The notes beneath the pieces are model-generated. The model saw only the letters and a program-made list of their open reading frames with translations. It made no database searches and was not told where the DNA came from. 64,000 nt of DNA from Escherichia coli (lineage in GTDB: Bacteria > Pseudomonadota > Gammaproteobacteria > Enterobacterales > Enterobacteriaceae), in NCBI GenBank assembly GCA_032372955.1, contig GCA_032372955.1_4725.1, one strand, 5' to 3'. The position numbers and the translations under genes are program-made. The stretch's first letter is position 1, and each line of letters begins with the position of its first letter. Shown in pieces: positions 6,024 through 63,744 of the stretch.

Positions 6024-6786
6024 CAGCAACGTTAGCGAAGGAACGGATTTATTGGGGTATCCGGCTGGGGTGGTGGTTGTAAATGAAGAAGAGCGCATCC
6101 GTCGCGCTCAGGATCCGTCCATCCCGAAAACAAGACCGGACATGTGGCAGGAGCTGGTAGACAACAGCGAGCTTCTACGAAAAGGTTTACAGGAGATGAC
6201 GCGTCCCAACATCCTGCCTGAATCGCTGTTTGTTAAACATTTCTTGTATCCGTTCGCAGGAATGTTTTCGCAGGATCCTGAATACGCGGAGATGCTGAGT
6301 AATAGCACCATTGTTCACGATTGGTGCAAGATAGCAGGCCAACCGCATCGTGCTGTTAATATTGTTGCTGATGGGAATAACAACAAGGTTCTGTTTACGG
6401 TACCAGCTATCTTTATCCGGACACGTTCATACATCAATCGTGACCCCAATACGTGTTTCCTCGCGATGGTGGACAAAGCACGCCGACAGTATAACTTCAA
6501 TCCTGAAAGCGCTAAAGCTTACGTCGACCATCAGCTTGATCGCTTTGCCCCAAATGAAAGCAAAGACCATGTTGTTGCTGATTACGTGCAATGGCTTCGG
6601 ATTTTTGACCATTATAACGTACCCCTTTACGACGTTCGTGATGGTTCACGTCGTACGGTAAAAGAGCGTGGGTTATTAAATGGATTGAATCTGGCCAGAA
6701 CTTCTTCAACAACTGCGTCGGTGGGTAGTAGAAACATGCCGTCTACGACGGGGACTATTAGCAGCAGCAACTTAGAGGAATTCTGA
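6004..6786 (+). CDS. hypothetical protein
   Basis: ORF track; RBS GGAGGAAG upstream; overlaps neighbours by few codons. Confidence 0.6.
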   Translation: MKARQTNSNVSEGTDLLGYPAGVVVVNEEERIRRAQDPSIPKTRPDMWQELVDNSELLRKGLQEMTRPNILPESLFVKHFLYPFAGMFSQDPEYAEMLSNSTIVHDWCKIAGQPHRAVNIVADGNNNKVLFTVPAIFIRTRSYINRDPNTCFLAMVDKARRQYNFNPESAKAYVDHQLDRFAPNESKDHVVADYVQWLRIFDHYNVPLYDVRDGSRRTVKERGLLNGLNLARTSSTTASVGSRNMPSTTGTISSSNLEEF

Positions 6787-56177: not shown

Positions 56178-57134
56178 ATGATGGCTGTGCTAACGCCCAG
56201 ATACTTCACCTTCGTTTGCGGTAATAAACCGAAATTTAGTTACAGTGATGATATCCATCGCATGCTACGTAACCGCGTAGCAAAAGCGTTGATTGCACTC
56301 ATTTCGGAGCGTTACGGGTTTGGTCTCGATTACCCCAAAGAAGGAGGTCGGCTGGTTGCTCCGTTACCACCGAATGATCATCCGATACACCCGTTATTGG
56401 ATACGGTGATTCTTCCCCTGTTCACTGAACAGACGCCCCTAACAAAAAGTTTATGTCGCCATTTGCTCTATGATTACAGTGTGCTGTGGGAGCCATTACG
56501 TACGATGCAACCACCGCGTAATTTAGGCGTATTTGACAAGTATGAAGTGTCAACCATTGTTAATCTGCTTGGCGGCGAACATGCTTTAGGTTGGCGCGTT
56601 GCCGATGAACTTACGATAAGTTGGGGGGTGAGTAACGTCACAGATTACGATATAGACCGTAAACAAATCTGTCTTTGGGAGCATACCGGCCCGACAGTGC
56701 AAGAACTGCTTGATATGCCCAATCTCTTCTACACGGGAGTGATACTGGGTTATCGGCCAGGGGATAAGGACTTCTACCTCGAAAATCATCGATGGTTAAC
56801 GCAATATGGGCACACTTTAACCTACCCAAAACTTGAAGAAATGGGGAATAATGTTTGGTGTATCCGTAATTTAGCCATTCTTCCCGATAACGAGCATTTT
56901 GCGAAAATACTTGCCGATAAAGGAGGCATGGAAGATATTTACAGCGTGTGTTTTGATTTAGGCATCGCCTGTGTCTTTCGTATCGCTGACGTCGGAGGGA
57001 GTCCGCGCATCGAGATGGTTGAACGCTATCGTTGGGCAGAAGGTACGATACCACCTGATGAAATACTCAAACTTTTCCCTGAGGTTGTGGTTAAACGGAT
57101 TAATGAGATCCAACCCTACTTAGCAAAAGCGTGA
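56178..57134 (+). CDS. hypothetical protein
   Basis: ORF track; RBS GAGGGAAAG upstream. Confidence 0.6.
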   Translation: MMAVLTPRYFTFVCGNKPKFSYSDDIHRMLRNRVAKALIALISERYGFGLDYPKEGGRLVAPLPPNDHPIHPLLDTVILPLFTEQTPLTKSLCRHLLYDYSVLWEPLRTMQPPRNLGVFDKYEVSTIVNLLGGEHALGWRVADELTISWGVSNVTDYDIDRKQICLWEHTGPTVQELLDMPNLFYTGVILGYRPGDKDFYLENHRWLTQYGHTLTYPKLEEMGNNVWCIRNLAILPDNEHFAKILADKGGMEDIYSVCFDLGIACVFRIADVGGSPRIEMVERYRWAEGTIPPDEILKLFPEVVVKRINEIQPYLAKA

Positions 57135-57150
57135 ATGGGTTAATACATTA

Positions 57151-57175
57151 ATTTTCACGGCTATATTACTTAGGT
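57151..57175 (+). promoter_or_regulatory. putative early promoter TTTCACGGCTATATTACTTA
   Basis: Third identical copy; followed by hairpin GGTGAAGC...GCTTCACC. Confidence 0.45.
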
Positions 57176-57242
57176 GAAGCAATGCAGTAATCAGCTTCAC
57201 CTTGAATTATTAGCAACCAATCCAATATAAAAGGATGTCAAG

Positions 57243-57560
57243 ATGAGTATGTTTAAAATGGCTGTATTCGCTATTCGTAATAATCGCGATATCTTAGGTC
57301 ATTTGGAAGCCGACGCGGAAGGAACATTGATTCGTTTCATGCGTCGTGTTAAAGAAGCCTTTGATAATCGCGAGTATCTCGTGGAAGTTGTTGAGGACCT
57401 TCCACCGAACTCGATGCGTTTTGTCGCTATCGATGGGTCCGCAACCGACATCCGTTTCATCACCGTTAACGGAACAATGATGATGTTTTCGGGCGATGAT
57501 ACTGTTACAGGGCTGTTTCCAATCGTAACGGTTCTGGGTCATTTCTTACGTGCAAACTAA
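57243..57560 (+). CDS. hypothetical protein
   Basis: ORF track; RBS AAAGGATG upstream. Confidence 0.6.
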   Translation: MSMFKMAVFAIRNNRDILGHLEADAEGTLIRFMRRVKEAFDNREYLVEVVEDLPPNSMRFVAIDGSATDIRFITVNGTMMMFSGDDTVTGLFPIVTVLGHFLRAN

Positions 57561-57563
57561 TCA

Positions 57564-57586
57564 GGCCCCCCTAAATGGGGGGGCCT
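57564..57586 (+). terminator. GC stem-loop followed by TTTATACC
   Basis: AGGCCCCCC TAAAT GGGGGGGCCT. Confidence 0.45.
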
Positions 57587-57620
57587 TTATACCGATTTTA
57601 TTTCAACGAGGATCTTTATC

Positions 57621-58043
57621 ATGAAACTGTTCAAAAATATCGCATTCGCTATCGTCACCACTCTGGCTTTTGTTAGCACGCAAGCACAGGCTAACTGGAT
57701 GGCTCGTGGGAATAACTGTTACGCCTACAGCGAAGACGGTCGTTATCAGATTGGTATCTCCGATCGTTCGCTTGTTGTCATGGGTCAATTTCAATGCCGT
57801 GCGCACTATCCGATGTCTGATACCGTAGGAATCAATGGACGTGTATACCAAGCATTGAATATCTGCAGTCCGGACATGCGTTTGATCCCGGTTATTAGCC
57901 TTGCGAATACAGATCAAGCTGCTAGCGCAATCGCCAGCCTTAAAGAAGCACGTCGTGCGCGTATTCGTGCGTTTAACGAAACCATCATCGTAAATACCGA
58001 TGATATTCAGGCATGCGCTAACAGTGTAGCGGCCGTACGTTAA
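57621..58043 (+). CDS. secreted/periplasmic Cys-containing protein
   Basis: Signal-peptide-like MKLFKNIAFAIVTTLAFVSTQAQA; several Cys in mature part. Confidence 0.6.
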   Translation: MKLFKNIAFAIVTTLAFVSTQAQANWMARGNNCYAYSEDGRYQIGISDRSLVVMGQFQCRAHYPMSDTVGINGRVYQALNICSPDMRLIPVISLANTDQAASAIASLKEARRARIRAFNETIIVNTDDIQACANSVAAVR

Positions 58044-58079
58044 TAGGTATTGTAACATTTTACTTTCGAGGAAAATATC

Positions 58080-58430
58080 ATGAAAACGTTAACTAAATTG
58101 TTTGTTGCTGTTGCTATTCTGTTCGGTAGTGTTGTCGGTTCAGCACAGGCTGGATTGCTGGATAGCCCAGAGGTTTACGATAAAGCAAAAGCAATCTACA
58201 TGGCCATGGAGAGCATGACGCCAGCAGACCTTGAAGAATGTGGTGTTGATTTCGGTACCCCGAAAGAACTTCCCGGAGTTAAGAACCCTACCAACCCCAG
58301 CGTGAAATTGAAAGTGGCAGACTTCGAAGTTTTCAACCCCTCTTTCAAGACCTACGCGCGGGTTCGTATACTTGTTGATCCAGCAACCGGTGTTGTTCAG
58401 GGCGGTGAATATCTCTATCTGGGTAAATAA
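58080..58430 (+). CDS. secreted/periplasmic protein
   Basis: Signal-peptide-like MKTLTKLFVAVAILFGSVVGSAQA. Confidence 0.6.
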   Translation: MKTLTKLFVAVAILFGSVVGSAQAGLLDSPEVYDKAKAIYMAMESMTPADLEECGVDFGTPKELPGVKNPTNPSVKLKVADFEVFNPSFKTYARVRILVDPATGVVQGGEYLYLGK

Positions 58431-58448
58431 TTGAGTAAGGACAATACG

Positions 58449-58658
58449 ATGATTCCAGCTAACCCTCTTTTAAGTATCAATCCTTTCCACAGCAATCCTG
58501 GTGTCGATCAGATACAACCTGCTTTTTTATCACAGTTCCGGGCTGATTATGATGGCGACACCGTAACTGGAAACAGTATCCGTCTGTTGAATCGCCGCAA
58601 GAAAGGTCCAGGTAAAGGCAAAGTAAAAATCATTCAACGTTTAATCTCTTATGTATAA
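58449..58658 (+). CDS. small basic protein with KKGPGKGK motif
   Basis: Track ORF trimmed to ATG 58449 with RBS TAAGGA; motif shared with 40034-40595 cluster. Confidence 0.5.
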   Translation: MIPANPLLSINPFHSNPGVDQIQPAFLSQFRADYDGDTVTGNSIRLLNRRKKGPGKGKVKIIQRLISYV

Positions 58659-58676
58659 ACCAACACTGTTTGATAA

Positions 58677-58716
58677 GTGCCGCCTACATATGGGCGGCAC
58701 TGCTCTGGTCTTTATG
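58677..58716 (+). promoter_or_regulatory. GC stem-loop followed by TTTATGTTG
   Basis: GTGCCGCC TACATATG GGCGGCAC then TGCTCTGGTCTTTATG. Confidence 0.4.
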
Positions 58717-58740
58717 TTGTACAACAGTTGTCAAGGAGGT

Positions 58741-58821
58741 ATGTGGGTACGTGCGTTGTTACTCGCATTCGCGTTAGTGATGTTTCTAAAATTTGAATCA
58801 TCGCTTTATCAGAAAAAGTAA
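58741..58821 (+). CDS. tiny hydrophobic peptide (26 aa)
   Basis: ATG immediately after strong RBS CAAGGAGGT; sequence MWVRALLLAFALVMFLKFESSLYQKK; below track cutoff. Confidence 0.3.
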   Translation: MWVRALLLAFALVMFLKFESSLYQKK

Positions 58822-58831
58822 GAAGGAGTTC

Positions 58832-59026
58832 ATGATGGGACATATGCTACTACGGGGATTAACGGGGATGGTTCTAGCATGGATGGTCATTGGGTTTTGT
58901 GGGATGATGTTCTTCATGGTCGATGAACCTGCTGCCCGAATTAACGTAGGGTTATGGTTCGTCTTCTTGATGATAGCGGTATTCGTTATCGTTACCTTGT
59001 TAAGGAATGTAGGAAAGCGCAAATAA
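58832..59026 (+). CDS. small two-TM membrane protein, holin-like
   Basis: Two hydrophobic helices and charged C-terminus RNVGKRK; RBS AAGAAGGAG. Confidence 0.45.
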   Translation: MMGHMLLRGLTGMVLAWMVIGFCGMMFFMVDEPAARINVGLWFVFLMIAVFVIVTLLRNVGKRK

Positions 59027-59042
59027 ACGAACGGGAAAAGCC

Positions 59043-59414
59043 ATGGGTTTAAAGACATACGCAAAAATCTATTTCATTTTCACTTTTATAATGATTGGGA
59101 TTTCTGCAGCGAATATCGATTTTGAAACAACGACGGAACGCGTTTATTACGTTATCCGAACCATCGTTTGTGTTATAGGGCAGCTTCCCCTTTTGTATAT
59201 TTGTACATGGTCGACGCGTAACATCAGACGGTTTGTCGTGTATGGGTTCGCGTACGTTCTTTTTATGCTTGTTATGTGGCAGGTCGATGCTCGACTGAGC
59301 GATATCGCAAATATCATCGCAACGGCGATTCTCAGTGCAACAAGCTGGTGTTTATTTTTACCGATGTGTCGACGTGTCGAGGATGAAGGTTATGGGTATC
59401 ATGGAGAATCTTAA
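59043..59414 (+). CDS. multi-pass membrane protein
   Basis: Four hydrophobic segments. Confidence 0.55.
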   Translation: MGLKTYAKIYFIFTFIMIGISAANIDFETTTERVYYVIRTIVCVIGQLPLLYICTWSTRNIRRFVVYGFAYVLFMLVMWQVDARLSDIANIIATAILSATSWCLFLPMCRRVEDEGYGYHGES

Positions 59415-59703
59415 GTTAACTAATCGCATCCTTGTCGATAGAGAAGTTGTTTTACGCGAGATACGAAGCGTGATGGCGATCTTTAATCTGGATCATCGAT
59501 CTGCCATTATGTCTATTCTCTTGAATAAAACAACCTTTAATATCCGGGAGATACGTCGTATTCACAACGGTATGGAACGACGGCATAAATTAAGCGACGA
59601 ACTCGTACATTGCGAGTTTATACCGCATCAAGTCTATCGACGTATTTATCGTGATCCATGCCTTCGGGATAAATACAACCTATGGCTCGACGGTAGAGGT
59701 TAA
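59392..59703 (+). CDS. hypothetical basic protein
   Basis: Track ORF trimmed to ATG 59392 with RBS GAGGATGAAGG. Confidence 0.45.
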   Translation: MGIMENLKLTNRILVDREVVLREIRSVMAIFNLDHRSAIMSILLNKTTFNIREIRRIHNGMERRHKLSDELVHCEFIPHQVYRRIYRDPCLRDKYNLWLDGRG

Positions 59704-59955
59704 CATCTTTGAGAAACTATATGAATTCAAACGATGTACACCTTTACCGCGTTGGATGCGGGAAATGGGTTCTGTTATCCAACGTTATGTTTATTGCCAA
59801 ACCAGAGGAGACCGTAATTTCAGTACCGTTTATTTCTGTCGTGGATGTCGGGCAAACATCTGACGCTAACCTGCTGCCCGCTGAATAGAACAACCCGATG
59901 ACGGGATGCGTTATCAAGACGCCAGTGGACAGCACCTTATCGTGAGGTTATTAAG

Positions 59956-60453
59956 ATGCAAGGTATTTTACACACGTTGATTTTAGGGCTTGTTATGTTG
60001 CTTATCACACCGTTCAGTCAAGCATCGGTGAACGCAGGACCTAGAATCGATTGCCGGAAAGAGATCGTCGCATGCGCTGTGTATATGGAAGCCAGAGGCG
60101 AATCTGTAAAAGGGCAATACTCCGTGGCGTTTTTAATACATAATCGATCTATGGACTACCGATTCCCTACGAACGTCAAAGACGTCGTACTGCAAAGAGG
60201 TCAATTCCCCTGGACAAAACAAAGGCGTATTGTCATACGCGATCACGCTGCTTTTGAGCGAGCAAGAGCAATAGCACGAGAGGTCGCAACATTACGTTAC
60301 ACTGACATTGCGGCTTACCATAAAGCCGACCCAACACGAGGAGCCGTATTCTTTAACGCGAAACATCTTCGCCCTAAACATTTCAGAAAACATGCTACCA
60401 ATATCACCGTGGTAGACAGCCACATTTTCTTTGGTAAACGACGTCACACGTAA
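59956..60453 (+). CDS. SleB/CwlJ-type cell-wall hydrolase with N-terminal signal or signal-anchor, candidate endolysin
   Basis: VYMEARGESVKGQYSVAFLIHNRS matches Hydrolase_2 core; hydrophobic N-terminus HTLILGLVMLLITPFSQA. Confidence 0.6.
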   Translation: MQGILHTLILGLVMLLITPFSQASVNAGPRIDCRKEIVACAVYMEARGESVKGQYSVAFLIHNRSMDYRFPTNVKDVVLQRGQFPWTKQRRIVIRDHAAFERARAIAREVATLRYTDIAAYHKADPTRGAVFFNAKHLRPKHFRKHATNITVVDSHIFFGKRRHT

Positions 60454-60467
60454 AACAAATCCGTATG

Positions 60468-60501
60468 CCCTTCCTGCGTAATGCAGGAAGGGTTTATGCT
60501 G
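60468..60501 (+). promoter_or_regulatory. GC-rich hairpin followed by TTTATGCTG
   Basis: CCCTTCCTGC GTAAT GCAGGAAGGG then TTTATGCTG. Confidence 0.5.
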
Positions 60502-60546
60502 TTAAACTGACTAAATGTAATCATCCTAATAAAGAAGGAAATCATC

Positions 60547-60804
60547 ATGAAAACGATCAAAGCAACTAAATCCGTTAAAACAAATAAAACTAACGTTCAG
60601 CCGCTGCACCATATCACGGTTTACCGTAACAAAGATAACGCCATCACCAAGTTCCGCGTTCGTGTAAAAGCGGCTGAATCCGTATTAGAGAAATTGGTTG
60701 ATATGACGGTTTCTGTCGATGCCTATGATTCGTATCAGAAAGCAATGCTGGCAGCAATTCAAATCCGCGATAAAGCGCTGAACAACCCAATCAACGCATT
60801 TTAA
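60547..60804 (+). CDS. hypothetical protein
   Basis: ORF track; RBS AAGAAGGAAATC upstream. Confidence 0.6.
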   Translation: MKTIKATKSVKTNKTNVQPLHHITVYRNKDNAITKFRVRVKAAESVLEKLVDMTVSVDAYDSYQKAMLAAIQIRDKALNNPINAF

Positions 60805-60826
60805 TTACTTAGCAACTTAGCAAACG

Positions 60827-60862
60827 GTTCTTCTCTTCCTGAAGCTGTGGAGGGGAAGAACC
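60827..60862 (+). terminator. imperfect stem-loop
   Basis: GGTTCTTCTCTTCC / GGAGGGGAAGAACC. Confidence 0.4.
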
Positions 60863-60933
60863 AGAAAGGAGTAATTATGTTTTCTTTTGTTGTCAGCGAA
60901 GAACAATTAGCGAAATTCAAATAACGTGCATGG

Positions 60934-61377
60934 ATGGCTATCAAGGAAGGAGTCATTGAACCCGGAATATTACCCGCGTGCCAGGCGTTGTTAGATGCGC
61001 CTGGTGTTGCACCGATGTGGTCATGCGAAGGACACGATAATGTAACCCGTAAAGTGGTCGTTGATGGGAAAACAAGCACAAAGGTTGTTCGTAAGCACCC
61101 GCACGTTATCGTCGCTGTAACGACCGAAGGGTTGTCTTATATAGACGCTATAGGTGAATGCTTACGACGCCAACCCGCTGATTATATTTGGCGAATTGGG
61201 GTTAACAGATTGAGCGATCCCACCAAAGAAGATGACACGTCGGAGACACTCTATTGGGCTTGGGATATCCACTCGGTTAATTTCAAACATCGCGATGGCG
61301 GGACAATGGAGGAACGCGGTCAACGATTAAACGCTGCTATTCTGGAAGCGGTAGAGTTCGTAAAGAACAAGAATTAA
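60934..61377 (+). CDS. hypothetical protein
   Basis: ORF track; no obvious RBS, possibly coupled to upstream 15-codon ORF 60877-60924. Confidence 0.5.
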   Translation: MAIKEGVIEPGILPACQALLDAPGVAPMWSCEGHDNVTRKVVVDGKTSTKVVRKHPHVIVAVTTEGLSYIDAIGECLRRQPADYIWRIGVNRLSDPTKEDDTSETLYWAWDIHSVNFKHRDGGTMEERGQRLNAAILEAVEFVKNKN

Positions 61378-61454
61378 CTTTTACAGAAATTCAGTAACCT
61401 GTGTACTTGTAATCATGTCGCGTAAAAGACAATCTTTTGTTTGAGGAATAGAAA

Positions 61455-62204
61455 ATGCAAGAAGCACGTTATCAAGGAAGCATCATGCTTTCCTGTGGTT
61501 TTGTTATCGAACACCCAACGCTTGGTAAATTGTTCATCAAAGAAGAAATACGTAAACCAGGACAATCGAAGAACTTTTCGCCGCTTTTAGCCGCTAAAGC
61601 CTTATTAGAATCGTTCGAGGATATTAACGTCGTCACTTATCACACAACGTTATATCAAGCTGATGGGTACAGATGGTTCGACGGATGGATTCGTGTTCAT
61701 CACGATCAGATCGAGGTCGCTGTGGGAAACCTAGACGCTCTTCCGTTTACCCGTCATGATATCGATGCTGTTAAAATCGATCATAGTGACGCGGTGATCA
61801 AACTGCAGGACGATGAGTTGATCCAAGATGTACGTCGTTTCTGGTCGAACTATCAGGATAACATTTTGATTCCGGTACCTGACGAACTCTCTAAAGTTTA
61901 TGATGGACTGGTTAGCGAGAAGGGGGACGTATGGCGCACGTGCGAAGATCCCTATCGCTTCTTTACACGTAAACAAAAAGAACGTTTGATGGTACGCGGC
62001 TGGATTGAGAATCCTCTCGGCGATGTTTACCATTACGTTGATGCGGAAGCTGTGGTAAGTGACGAACGGCATAAATTTGATATTCGTGATGAACAGTTAA
62101 TATGGACAGCGCAGCGTTCAGTAGAGCAAGATGATGTGATTACTATGTTCTATGATCCTGAAATCAAATTGACTCTGTTTGTAGAAGGGGATATTGACGA
62201 ATGA
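61455..62204 (+). CDS. hypothetical protein
   Basis: ORF track; RBS GAGGAATAGAAA upstream. Confidence 0.6.
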   Translation: MQEARYQGSIMLSCGFVIEHPTLGKLFIKEEIRKPGQSKNFSPLLAAKALLESFEDINVVTYHTTLYQADGYRWFDGWIRVHHDQIEVAVGNLDALPFTRHDIDAVKIDHSDAVIKLQDDELIQDVRRFWSNYQDNILIPVPDELSKVYDGLVSEKGDVWRTCEDPYRFFTRKQKERLMVRGWIENPLGDVYHYVDAEAVVSDERHKFDIRDEQLIWTAQRSVEQDDVITMFYDPEIKLTLFVEGDIDE

Positions 62205-62776
62205 ATTGGATTAAGGTAGTGTTGTTTATTATACTTGTTGCTGTATCTATCGGACTATTCTTTTACACACGTCGGAAAGAACAGAAACGTAAACCGAGCA
62301 GACCGTTGGTTACCGGTGTTGTAACACCCGCAAAACAGTCTGAATTACCTAAATCGCTTTATATGACGGAAGTGACTTTAGATGCATCTAAAGGCAATGA
62401 GCTTGTGCTCGAAATGTTAATGCAGAAACATTATAAAGATGCTGTATTGACTGCCGAGTATTGGGTTGATCCTAACAGGCCAGGCAAACGCTGGCGCGCA
62501 TGGTATCCTTTACATGTGCCGTGCACAAACACCTGGATTGAGTGGCCTGCATTGGTTAGCTATCGTTCAACCGATAAAGCGAACAAAGCAGCGTTCTTCT
62601 TAGACACCAATCGTTTCAAATGGTATCCCGATAAGGTAACGAATGAGCCGGTATGGATGCCTAAGAAAGGTGGTACGTGCTTTACTGTTGGACAAGTCCT
62701 GTTAACAGATTTGGACGACCAGAACAACTTCTTTGTCATTGAAGAAGAAAAGCTTAACGATCTGATTCCTTACTAA
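62201..62776 (+). CDS. hypothetical protein with N-terminal TM helix
   Basis: ORF track; hydrophobic WIKVVLFIILVAVSIGLFFY. Confidence 0.6.
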   Translation: MNWIKVVLFIILVAVSIGLFFYTRRKEQKRKPSRPLVTGVVTPAKQSELPKSLYMTEVTLDASKGNELVLEMLMQKHYKDAVLTAEYWVDPNRPGKRWRAWYPLHVPCTNTWIEWPALVSYRSTDKANKAAFFLDTNRFKWYPDKVTNEPVWMPKKGGTCFTVGQVLLTDLDDQNNFFVIEEEKLNDLIPY

Positions 62777-62913: not shown

Positions 62914-63744
62914 ATGTATCCTGAAGCATCGTGGCAGGAAGAAGCGTTATCTAAAATAAACGCTTATCTCCAGCATCCGTTGTCTCTGTCAGACATTACG
63001 TTAACGCCAGCCTGGTATGGTGCATCAGGTCGGTTACGCCTTTCTATAGCCCCCACACCACAATCGGTTTACTACGTCGAAGACCCCGTACAGGTTTATC
63101 TTCAACGTCGCGATATTAATAAGCTCTTTATCAAACACCAACCTTTTATTGTCGTTGCTGATATGACGACGACAGCAGACTGCTTAACGCAGCTGTTTAA
63201 GAAGTATGGGTTGAAGATCGATTTAACGATCTTTGATTCTTCAGCGTTAGCGTTACCGGTTAAATTTGAAAGCGGTGAGAAAACCATATCTGTTCCCGTT
63301 CTTTCTGACGCATCAGCATCGTGGTACGGTACGTTTCAATTCCTCGCACGAAAAGATGTAAGTGCCGATATTAGCGAACTGATTACGGTACGAGAACCGC
63401 TAACCTCGTATTATCCAGAAGATAGTAAACAAGGGGATTTCCACACATTCAGTACATACGGCATCAAGCTAAATATACCGCCGCAAGATGCGATACGTTC
63501 GATGTCGGTTGGAGATACTCCCGAAGGATACAACGCATTCCGTTTAGCCTCATCGCTGATTTCAATGAGTTATACCTCAGCTTGGGAACTCATCACAACA
63601 GCCAGTGTCGTTTATAATGGAAAAGTTGCCGATGCGAACGATTTAGATGTTCCAATACTTCCGTCGTTCGGAAGCTCTGTTCTGGTGTTAAAACCTCATT
63701 CCGATAGCGGCGTCAGCAGCAAACTTTATTTTAGTTACGATTAA
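62914..63744 (+). CDS. hypothetical protein
   Basis: ORF track. Confidence 0.6.
   Translation: MYPEASWQEEALSKINAYLQHPLSLSDITLTPAWYGASGRLRLSIAPTPQSVYYVEDPVQVYLQRRDINKLFIKHQPFIVVADMTTTADCLTQLFKKYGLKIDLTIFDSSALALPVKFESGEKTISVPVLSDASASWYGTFQFLARKDVSADISELITVREPLTSYYPEDSKQGDFHTFSTYGIKLNIPPQDAIRSMSVGDTPEGYNAFRLASSLISMSYTSAWELITTASVVYNGKVADANDLDVPILPSFGSSVLVLKPHSDSGVSSKLYFSYD

Follow-up and report, generated by a model that had tools for sequence, protein, structure and literature searches.

A candidate host-lysis control cluster with a nearly invariant leader RNA in a Goslar-like Escherichia coli jumbo phage

Host lysis has been worked out experimentally for one chimallivirus only, phiKZ (2026), whose cassette comprises the i-spanin gp141, the o-spanin gp141.1, the class IIIb holin gp142, the regulator gp143 and the transglycosylase gp144 (PMC12894885). 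Another arrangement was proposed in the Vequintavirinae: CB7_83 of Pectobacterium phage CB7 is a SleB-like protein with a signal peptide, reported as toxic in E. coli (“data not shown”), and a 65-residue open reading frame (ORF) with two transmembrane domains (TMDs) that overlaps its gene was put forward as a class II holin (PMC7344957). Here we describe a gene cluster in a 64-kb stretch of DNA from an E. coli assembly (contig GCA_032372955.1_4725.1; the window) and compare it with both. An initial annotation had proposed a lysis cassette of four ORFs: a 26-codon hydrophobic frame (pep26), a 64-residue two-TMD protein (p64), a four-TMD protein (p123) and a SleB/CwlJ-family hydrolase (lys165). 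All four are present on the + strand, and the cluster has two further features, the gene of a soluble protein, p103 (59401-59703), and a 252-nt leader (59704-59955). Our analysis suggests, with a probability of roughly 55%, that the cluster is a host-lysis control module of Goslar-like chimalliviruses. The features are as follows.

58676..58701, + strand: GC-rich hairpin of 11 bp, predicted by folding, 3′ of the gp102 homologue and kept in relatives.
58741..58821, + strand: pep26, 26-codon hydrophobic ORF (MWVRALLLAFALVMFLKFESSLYQKK), with AAGGAGG upstream.
58832..59026, + strand: p64, 64-residue two-TMD protein, gp101 homologue and holin candidate, with AAGGAG upstream.
59043..59414, + strand: p123, 123-residue four-TMD protein with four hydrophobic segments, gp100 homologue.
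59401..59703, + strand: p103, gp099 homologue, a basic, soluble protein predicted to be all-helical (103 residues from the annotated start at 59392).
59704..59955, + strand: leader of 252 nt that separates the p103 and hydrolase genes and whose nucleotides hardly vary; the conserved island continues to 60024.
59956..60453, + strand: lys165, 165-residue SleB/Hydrolase_2 muralytic enzyme, gp098 homologue; codon of the presumed catalytic Glu45 at 60088-60090.
60467..60493, + strand: terminator-like hairpin, 11 bp followed by UUUAUGCUGUU, which closes the unit directly 3′ of the hydrolase gene.

By megablast, window positions 57000-62000 align over their full length with Escherichia phage vB_EcoM_Goslar at 94.5% nucleotide identity, and by this comparison the window is that of a Goslar-like chimallivirus. 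Goslar (Goslarvirus), 237 kb in size, is one of the nucleus-forming jumbo phages and infects E. coli. Since the first bases of the window share an ORF with Goslar at about 171.1 kb, the window corresponds to the reverse complement of roughly Goslar 107-171 kb. The genes described here are homologues of Goslar gp101 (64 residues), gp100 (123 residues), gp099 (103 residues) and gp098, all on the + strand of the window; RefSeq labels gp098 “endolysin”, and the 26-codon ORF has no annotation in Goslar. The order pep26, p64, (p123), p103, leader, hydrolase recurs in seven further relatives (L001-L006 and L022). The conserved gene order and the codon-change bias are, as judged from these alignments, more than chance.

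The most divergent evidence comes from L022, which was recovered by a p64 profile search of 1.84 billion representatives; the search added two proteins, that of L022 and one in a bacterial genomic island. When p64, p123 and p103 were compared with 50,697 phage records by tblastn, matches were obtained in Goslar only, and in a collection of 5.8 billion proteins they were confined to Goslar-like genomes. Many of the genomes with homologues are contigs of about 240 kb from E. coli or Salmonella sequencing data. Searches of Pfam, PHROGs and NCBIfam with pep26, p64, p123, p103 and three upstream proteins gave nothing significant; sub-threshold matches to FtsW, CaiF and CoA_binding_3 were disregarded.

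The assignment of the hydrolase to the SleB/CwlJ family was borne out by a match to the full Pfam Hydrolase_2 profile (PF07486, profile positions 1-100; 59.8 bits, the curated cut-off being 27; E 4.2e-16), by PHROG 938 “endolysin” (3.9e-16) and by TIGR02869 SleB (1.3e-10, under the equivalog cut-off). Its YMEARGE motif aligns with YGESRGE in the active-site region of the SleB chains 4F55/4FET and is invariant in the homologues of Arash (45% identity), A73, KEY and the L004 group; residues E45, A46, R47, G48 and E49 do not vary among five phage homologues. We take the first Glu of the motif, E45, to be the catalytic residue. Only one of seven codon changes relative to Goslar is non-synonymous (6 synonymous, 1 non-synonymous). 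Outside Goslar, homologues occur in about 1,040 phage records, mostly of enterobacterial myoviruses of 115-180 kb. Profile and motif show the protein to be a SleB-type enzyme, predicted to cleave peptidoglycan, and its N-terminus carries an export signal.

The nature of this signal was examined further. The initial annotation had left open a secreted or a signal-anchor-release (SAR) N-terminus. By inspection, residues 1-23 resemble a signal peptide, with ILHTLILGLVMLLITPF followed by S-Q-A|SV; the hydrophobic core leads into P-F-S-Q-A|S, with small residues at positions -3 and -1 and Pro, a helix breaker, at position -5. The n-region, MQG, is uncharged, which is atypical for a Sec signal, and is conserved in all relatives (MQGIIHT in L022). 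The homologues of Arash, A73 and KEY carry classic signal peptides of the form MK/MKK/MRK, core, A|x (MKCLLTISLLLGLFVAKPVLA|S, MKKLVLCGLICTLSLAPGVTYA|K and MRKTLALVFLLFSFNSFA|S). A SAR domain has two to three basic residues ahead of a TMD made mainly of the weakly hydrophobic residues Gly, Ala, Ser and Thr, and Mu gp22 has 10 such residues out of 20 (PMC9239132). The N-terminus found here (MQGILHT...) contains neither Lys nor Arg in its first 29 residues, and its 17-residue core contains 3/17 (18%) G/A/S/T and 71% L/I/V/F/M/W. It departs from a SAR domain on both counts; therefore, we read the N-terminus as a cleavable, if atypical, Sec signal peptide, which favours the secreted alternative.

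The holin-like topology proposed for p64 is supported. Hydrophobic segments at about residues 9-30 and 39-57 flank the loop DEPAARIN (net charge -1), and the C-terminal tail RNVGKRK carries a charge of +4; this predicts the class II topology, with both termini inside. Across p64 and 14 homologues, the short N-terminus contains Arg or Lys, TMD1 is rich in Gly and Met, the tail is cationic and the topology is kept, with hardly any variation in the periplasmic loop D(E/V)PAARIN and in TMD2. Relative to Goslar, 10 codon changes are synonymous and 2 non-synonymous. On these counts p64 is under strong purifying selection, and it is kept in every relative, including L022. A check for a dual-start motif found MMGHM in the window, an upstream in-frame MKSGGIM in the L004 group and a single start in the L002, L003 and L022 types.

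The closest parallel to this pair is found in the Vequintavirinae, where Escherichia phage A73 has the same pairing as CB7, of the hydrolase A73_73 and the two-TMD protein A73_74. The CB7_83/CB7_82 and A73_73/A73_74 systems resemble the present one in a Hydrolase_2 homologue of 30-36% identity that starts with a signal peptide and in a two-TMD protein of 65-70 residues with a cationic C-terminus, whose gene adjoins the hydrolase gene on the same strand. They differ in that the small protein is encoded downstream and overlaps the hydrolase gene, whereas p64 lies 930 nt upstream, with two genes and the leader between. p64 has no sequence similarity to A73_74 by BLASTP, and both systems are putative.

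The pinholin/SAR-endolysin systems (phage 21 S68/R21, P1 Lyz and Mu gp22) offer a second comparison. They share with this cluster Sec export without a large-hole holin, as we infer here, and a small two-TMD class II partner that would act through membrane depolarisation. In contrast, the N-terminus of the present hydrolase lacks basic residues, has 18% G/A/S/T against about 50% in Mu gp22 and ends in SQA|S, and the fold is SleB-type rather than T4-lysozyme-type. Lys44 of Oenococcus phage fOg44 is a secreted signal-peptide endolysin controlled by holin-mediated depolarisation. The predicted cleavable Sec signal and the retention of a holin-like protein that is not needed for export resemble this class, although here the bacterium is Gram-negative and a different catalytic domain is used. 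Secreted signal-peptide endolysins have been described as a general class (PMC7143992).

The leader lies in an island of nucleotide conservation. Positions 59704-60024 are 97-100% identical in L001-L006, except for an indel-rich stretch in L005, while the flanks have 58-65% (p123 and p103) and 81% (mature hydrolase) identity. In L022 this region is 80% identical, and invariant blocks alternate with variable, indel-bearing spacers. Gene callers annotate an ORF, p55, inside the leader on related metagenomic contigs. The elements within the leader are listed below.

59721-59888, + strand: p55, ORF of 55 codons, or 59 with a TTG start at 59709.
59749..59785, + strand: hairpin H2, 15 bp, z-score -3.3.
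59858..59948, + strand: long hairpin of 91 nt with a 21-pair basal helix.

p55 was rejected as a gene. Compared with L004, none of 56 third positions in its frame is changed, as against fractions of 0.33-0.54 in the neighbouring genes. Its few changes are all non-synonymous, all three frames are open over p55, and in L022 its frame is broken by stop codons and a frameshift. The ORF is thus probably non-coding and its annotation spurious, and the constraint on the leader would then act on the nucleotide sequence itself.

Folding suggests how the leader may act. At the base of the long hairpin, AUCU (59858-59861) pairs with AGGU (59945-59948), the core of the Shine-Dalgarno sequence of the hydrolase gene (GAGG, 59944-59947). 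The 21 basal pairs are 100% paired with invariant arms, whereas the apical part has indels and is wholly different in L005 and L022. This hairpin is the dominant fold in the window (free energy -35 kcal/mol, z-score -4.1), and the same basal helix is present in the minimum-free-energy structures of L005 and L022. In H2, five variable pairs all stay paired, one of them by a compensatory UA>CG change. Covariation over the whole leader was not significant with seven sequences of which few are variable, and it lends slight support to no more than two helices. No Rfam match was obtained in 58300-60700. We consider it likely but unproven that the leader is a regulatory RNA that occludes the Shine-Dalgarno sequence; it could also serve as a promoter or operator array or as an anchor for recombination between mosaic modules. 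As to the last, the third-position divergence from the window in the hydrolase region (60025-60453) is 0.13 for L006 and 0.40 for L004, whereas 5′ of the leader both are equally distant, which indicates a recombination breakpoint at or near the conserved leader.

Stem-loops set the translation of known phage lysis genes, namely the sdi structure of lambda S and the lysis-gene hairpin of MS2. The predicted occlusion of a lysis-gene ribosome-binding site is common to these and the present leader. The leader differs in its length of about 250 nt, in being nearly invariant while flanking genes differ by 20-40%, and in that the occluded gene encodes the enzyme, not the holin.

The comparison with phiKZ, a member of the same virus family, reveals a shared layout of holin candidate, soluble protein and muralytic enzyme. 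Here, however, no spanin pair is present, the putative holin is a two-TMD protein that lacks a long cytoplasmic domain, and the SleB-type enzyme is predicted to be exported, whereas phiKZ uses a cytoplasmic transglycosylase. phmmer searches of ORFs of at least 40 residues in the window and in the Goslar sequence covered found no homologues of phiKZ gp141-gp144, gp141.1 included; only gp139 and gp140 have homologues. Since these phiKZ proteins are lacking and no membrane protein is encoded beside the Goslar endolysin-like protein gp024, no other recognisable cassette was found.

Under the lysis reading, the hydrolase would be a Sec substrate, probably processed after Ala23, and murein would thereby be reached without a large-hole holin. 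p64 would build up in the inner membrane and then form, at a programmed moment, small lesions that collapse the proton motive force. This collapse would time wall destruction by the periplasmic hydrolase, possibly together with the soluble GH108 enzyme gp024. The leader RNA would throttle hydrolase production, with the long hairpin occluding the Shine-Dalgarno sequence, and pep26, the dispensable p123 and p103 may serve as timing modulators; no spanin would take part. A bolder version is speculative and, in our estimate, rather unlikely as a whole: Goslar-like phages would lyse E. coli without spanins or phiKZ-type proteins, by means of a Sec-exported SleB-type enzyme gated by the leader of about 250 nt, timing would be set by translation of the enzyme with or instead of holin triggering, and pep26 and/or the cationic C-terminus of gp102 would replace the spanin.

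The cassette proposed initially is thus supported by the hydrolase, the holin-like topology and the bracketing hairpins, and several observations weigh against it. p64 belongs to no holin family described in Pfam, PHROGs or NCBIfam, although holins are notoriously diverse, and the missing match weakens family membership rather than functional analogy. Its only distant homologue with a readable context (65 residues, profile E 4e-5, same topology) lies in a bacterial genomic island (L023-L026, e.g. L023 6001-6198), where it adjoins a downstream gene for a 557-residue sulfatase-family protein (PF00884) and no lysis locus. The secreted Hydrolase_2 homologues of T5-like and rV5-like phages stand outside recognised lysis cassettes, that of the T5-like phage KEY among small genes and tRNA genes, and these phages carry other candidate endolysins. 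As the initial annotation had noted, no spanin candidate with a lipobox was seen; we found no lipobox ORF with a plausible start in the whole 64-kb window, no spanin in the window or in the Goslar sequence (all but about 3 kb inside the tail-fibre gene gp090), and no other outer-membrane disruptor was identified. Outside the window, Goslar encodes gp024, a soluble protein with GH108 and PG_binding_3 domains in the canonical endolysin architecture, and the giant tail protein gp204 with a second muralytic domain, a lysozyme domain. It also encodes an alternative holin candidate, gp085, a membrane protein shared with other chimalliviruses. The literature consulted yielded no Goslar transcriptome or gene-essentiality data on the cluster genes.

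Goslar NC_048170 93878-94447 (L008 43878-44447): gp085, 189 residues, with a cytoplasmic N-terminal domain of about 100 residues followed by one or more TMDs.

These observations bear on an alternative that is possible, if on the unlikely side, in which the cluster is an accessory envelope module whose secreted SleB-type enzyme, together with companion membrane proteins, remodels or locally opens murein during infection, and lysis is carried out by gp024 with a holin encoded elsewhere, for example gp085. gp024 has the classical architecture of a Gram-negative endolysin and adjoins tail-fibre genes, as phiKZ gp144 does, and gp085 resembles the class IIIb holin gp142 of phiKZ in predicted topology and has conserved counterparts in PCH45, PhiEaH1, Moabite and Klebsiella jumbo phages, where thymidylate kinase is often the neighbour. 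The KEY and rV5-like homologues outside recognised cassettes would also fit. Yet gp085 has no sequence similarity to phiKZ gp142, gp024 lacks a membrane-protein neighbour, and the hydrolase homologue of CB7 was toxic in E. coli (PMC7344957). In addition, the available text of Table S4 of the Goslar structure preprint gives about 76 copies of gp024 in purified virions, similar to the adjacent tail-fibre proteins (bioRxiv 10.64898/2026.04.21.720040), which suggests a virion lysin; a lysis role is not thereby excluded, as phiKZ gp142 and gp143 illustrate. Because the proven holin gp142 and the regulator gp143 of phiKZ are annotated as virion proteins, virion detection does not discriminate between roles. 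The same caution applies to gp098-gp102. The initial annotation had named a virion structural role of the membrane proteins as an outcome contrary to the lysis reading, and this outcome is not observed: gp098-gp102 do not appear in the virion mass-spectrometry table as far as its text is available (Table S4, bioRxiv 10.64898/2026.04.21.720040), and small membrane proteins are hard to detect by this method.

A superinfection-exclusion or envelope-modification module that blocks incoming phages, with the hydrolase incidental, appears quite improbable. It would consist of small inner-membrane and periplasmic proteins acting presumably as do T4 Imm and Sp, which block incoming phages. Two genes just upstream (57621-58043 and 58080-58430) encode signal-peptide proteins, the membrane ORFans are lineage-specific and fast-evolving with the four-TMD gene gained or lost between relatives, and the bacterial homologue of p64 lies in an island with WYL, H-NS and DNA-methylase genes nearby, all of which would suit exclusion. 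However, constraint is strongest on the hydrolase and p64, which invariably occur together, and the elaborate conserved leader argues that hydrolase dosage or timing is critical. A chance juxtaposition of unrelated hydrophobic ORFans, with the 26-codon ORF no gene at all, is highly improbable: the substitutions in pep26 have no clear third-position bias, and a random frame of 27 codons is open about a quarter of the time ((61/64)^27), but eight genomes share the gene order, the Shine-Dalgarno sequences and purifying selection on p64, including one whose p64 homologue is about 55% identical in protein.

The individual parts of the proposed lysis module are of known kinds, gp098 is already an “endolysin” in RefSeq, and a similar pairing has been described in the Vequintavirinae. 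The difference from the phiKZ cassette, the absence of a spanin and the nearly invariant structured leader are of specialist interest. Among nucleus-forming phages, Goslar serves as the principal E. coli model, and our results indicate that it lacks the phiKZ lysis genes and a spanin. The present analysis supplies candidates, with gp101 as holin, gp098 as exported enzyme, gp024 and gp085 as rivals, and the structured leader. With these, lysis timing in an E. coli jumbo phage becomes testable by existing tools, such as knock-down by CRISPR interference through antisense RNA targeting (CRISPRi-ART) and lambda complementation. This would also clarify the role of secreted SleB-type hydrolases in about a thousand enterobacterial phage records.

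Among the smaller members, pep26 is probably a real gene. The strong ribosome-binding site noted initially is the AAGGAGG motif, and the frame, length, Shine-Dalgarno sequence and hydrophobicity of pep26 are kept in 8/8 genomes, the most distant of which has about 69% DNA identity. Goslar retains the frame with four conservative hydrophobic changes, and L022 has MWVRVLLLTVALIMFLRFESSLYRNEK. The uncharged stretch from R4 to K17 comprises just 12 residues, which is short for a normal transmembrane helix. pep26 occupies the 3′ part of a longer frame of 56 codons that is open from 58651, and gene callers pick the 56-codon form on related contigs. In L004, 8 of 13 changes in the 30 open codons 5′ of pep26 fall at third positions, and this stretch also holds the 11-bp hairpin; a 56-residue form starting at 58651 may possibly be made.

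The four-TMD protein p123 is present as the initial annotation described; its place in the cassette did not hold. Its gene evolves fast (58% nucleotide identity in L004-L006) and is cleanly absent from two relatives, L002 (site 6204-6231) and L022 (310-314), having been gained or lost within the conserved cluster. p123 is therefore accessory and dispensable, and no core part of the cassette. p103, by contrast, is an ORFan retained in both L002 and L022. Comparison with relatives places its start at 59401, which gives 100 residues. Its AlphaFold2 model is all-helical with a mean predicted local distance difference test score (pLDDT) of 90.8 and has no structural relatives in the PDB or among viral models. 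p103 is a candidate cytoplasmic regulator by position only: its gene stands between those of the putative holin and the enzyme, as in the case of phiKZ gp143, and the likeness goes no further than position.

The hairpins at 58676-58701 and 60467-60493 bracket the cluster. The latter (z-score -5.25; 0/200 shuffles equally stable) is the strongest of three, the third being as follows.

57563-57586: strong terminator-like hairpin, 5′ of the gp104/gp103 homologue pair.

The hairpin at 58676-58701 has no immediate U-run and is not a clear terminator; it is possibly the 5′ boundary, an attenuator or a stabiliser of the unit. A sigma-70 promoter scan gave a signal at or under shuffle expectation, and a k-mer search for a shared intergenic promoter motif found only GGGAGGG/CCCTCCC, which we read, without folding, as hairpin arms.

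Further genes of interest are listed below.

57621-58043 and 58080-58430: gp104 and gp103 homologues, just 5′ of the cluster; both begin with a cleavable signal peptide of the classic type (AQA|N and AQA|G).
58449-58658, + strand: gp102 homologue, 69 residues, directly 5′ of pep26.
62201-62776: gp094 homologue, 191 residues, with one N-terminal TMD followed by the basic cluster YTRRKEQKRKPSR.
62914-63744: gp093 homologue, DUF7941, downstream of the candidate lysis genes.
Goslar NC_048170 97923-98426 (L008 47923-48426): gp088, lipoprotein of 167 residues with the lipobox LGGC.

gp088 is the only clear lipoprotein in the Goslar sequence covered (all but about 3 kb in gp090). It was rejected as a spanin, having no C-terminal TMD and adjoining tail-fibre and tail-fibre assembly genes. 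Its position presumably recalls receptor-blocking lipoproteins such as T5 Llp rather than a spanin. gp088 is reported at more than 200 copies in virion preparations. Table S4 of the Goslar structure preprint gives about 39 and 29 copies of gp104 and gp103 in purified virions, which is odd for periplasmic proteins (bioRxiv 10.64898/2026.04.21.720040). About 15 copies of the gp095 homologue were detected by virion mass spectrometry.

The N-terminal two-thirds of the gp102 homologue are variable, with 10 amino acid changes relative to Goslar. A strongly cationic, amphipathic C-terminus follows (NSIRLLNRRKKGPGKGKVKIIQRLISYV, +9), and Goslar and L002-L003 have the same final 19 residues (KKGPGKGKVKIIQRLISYV). 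By analogy with phiKT gp28, the gp102 homologue might be a disruptin-like spanin substitute. The gp094 homologue was considered as a spanin component, but the basic cluster after its TMD predicts a membrane-tethered cytoplasmic body, a topology like that of Mu releasin. Its gene overlaps the stop codon of the gene for an acidic 249-residue protein (61455-62204) by ATGA, which suggests translational coupling.

phiKZ gp143 (L018 5694-6227) has two differing published readings: the Goslar preprint, in the text available, describes it as a DUF7941 baseplate-filament protein (bioRxiv 10.64898/2026.04.21.720040), and the phiKZ lysis paper as a cytoplasmic lysis regulator (PMC12894885). In both phiKZ and the Goslar-like phage, DUF7941/tail-fibre genes follow a short way downstream of the candidate lysis genes.

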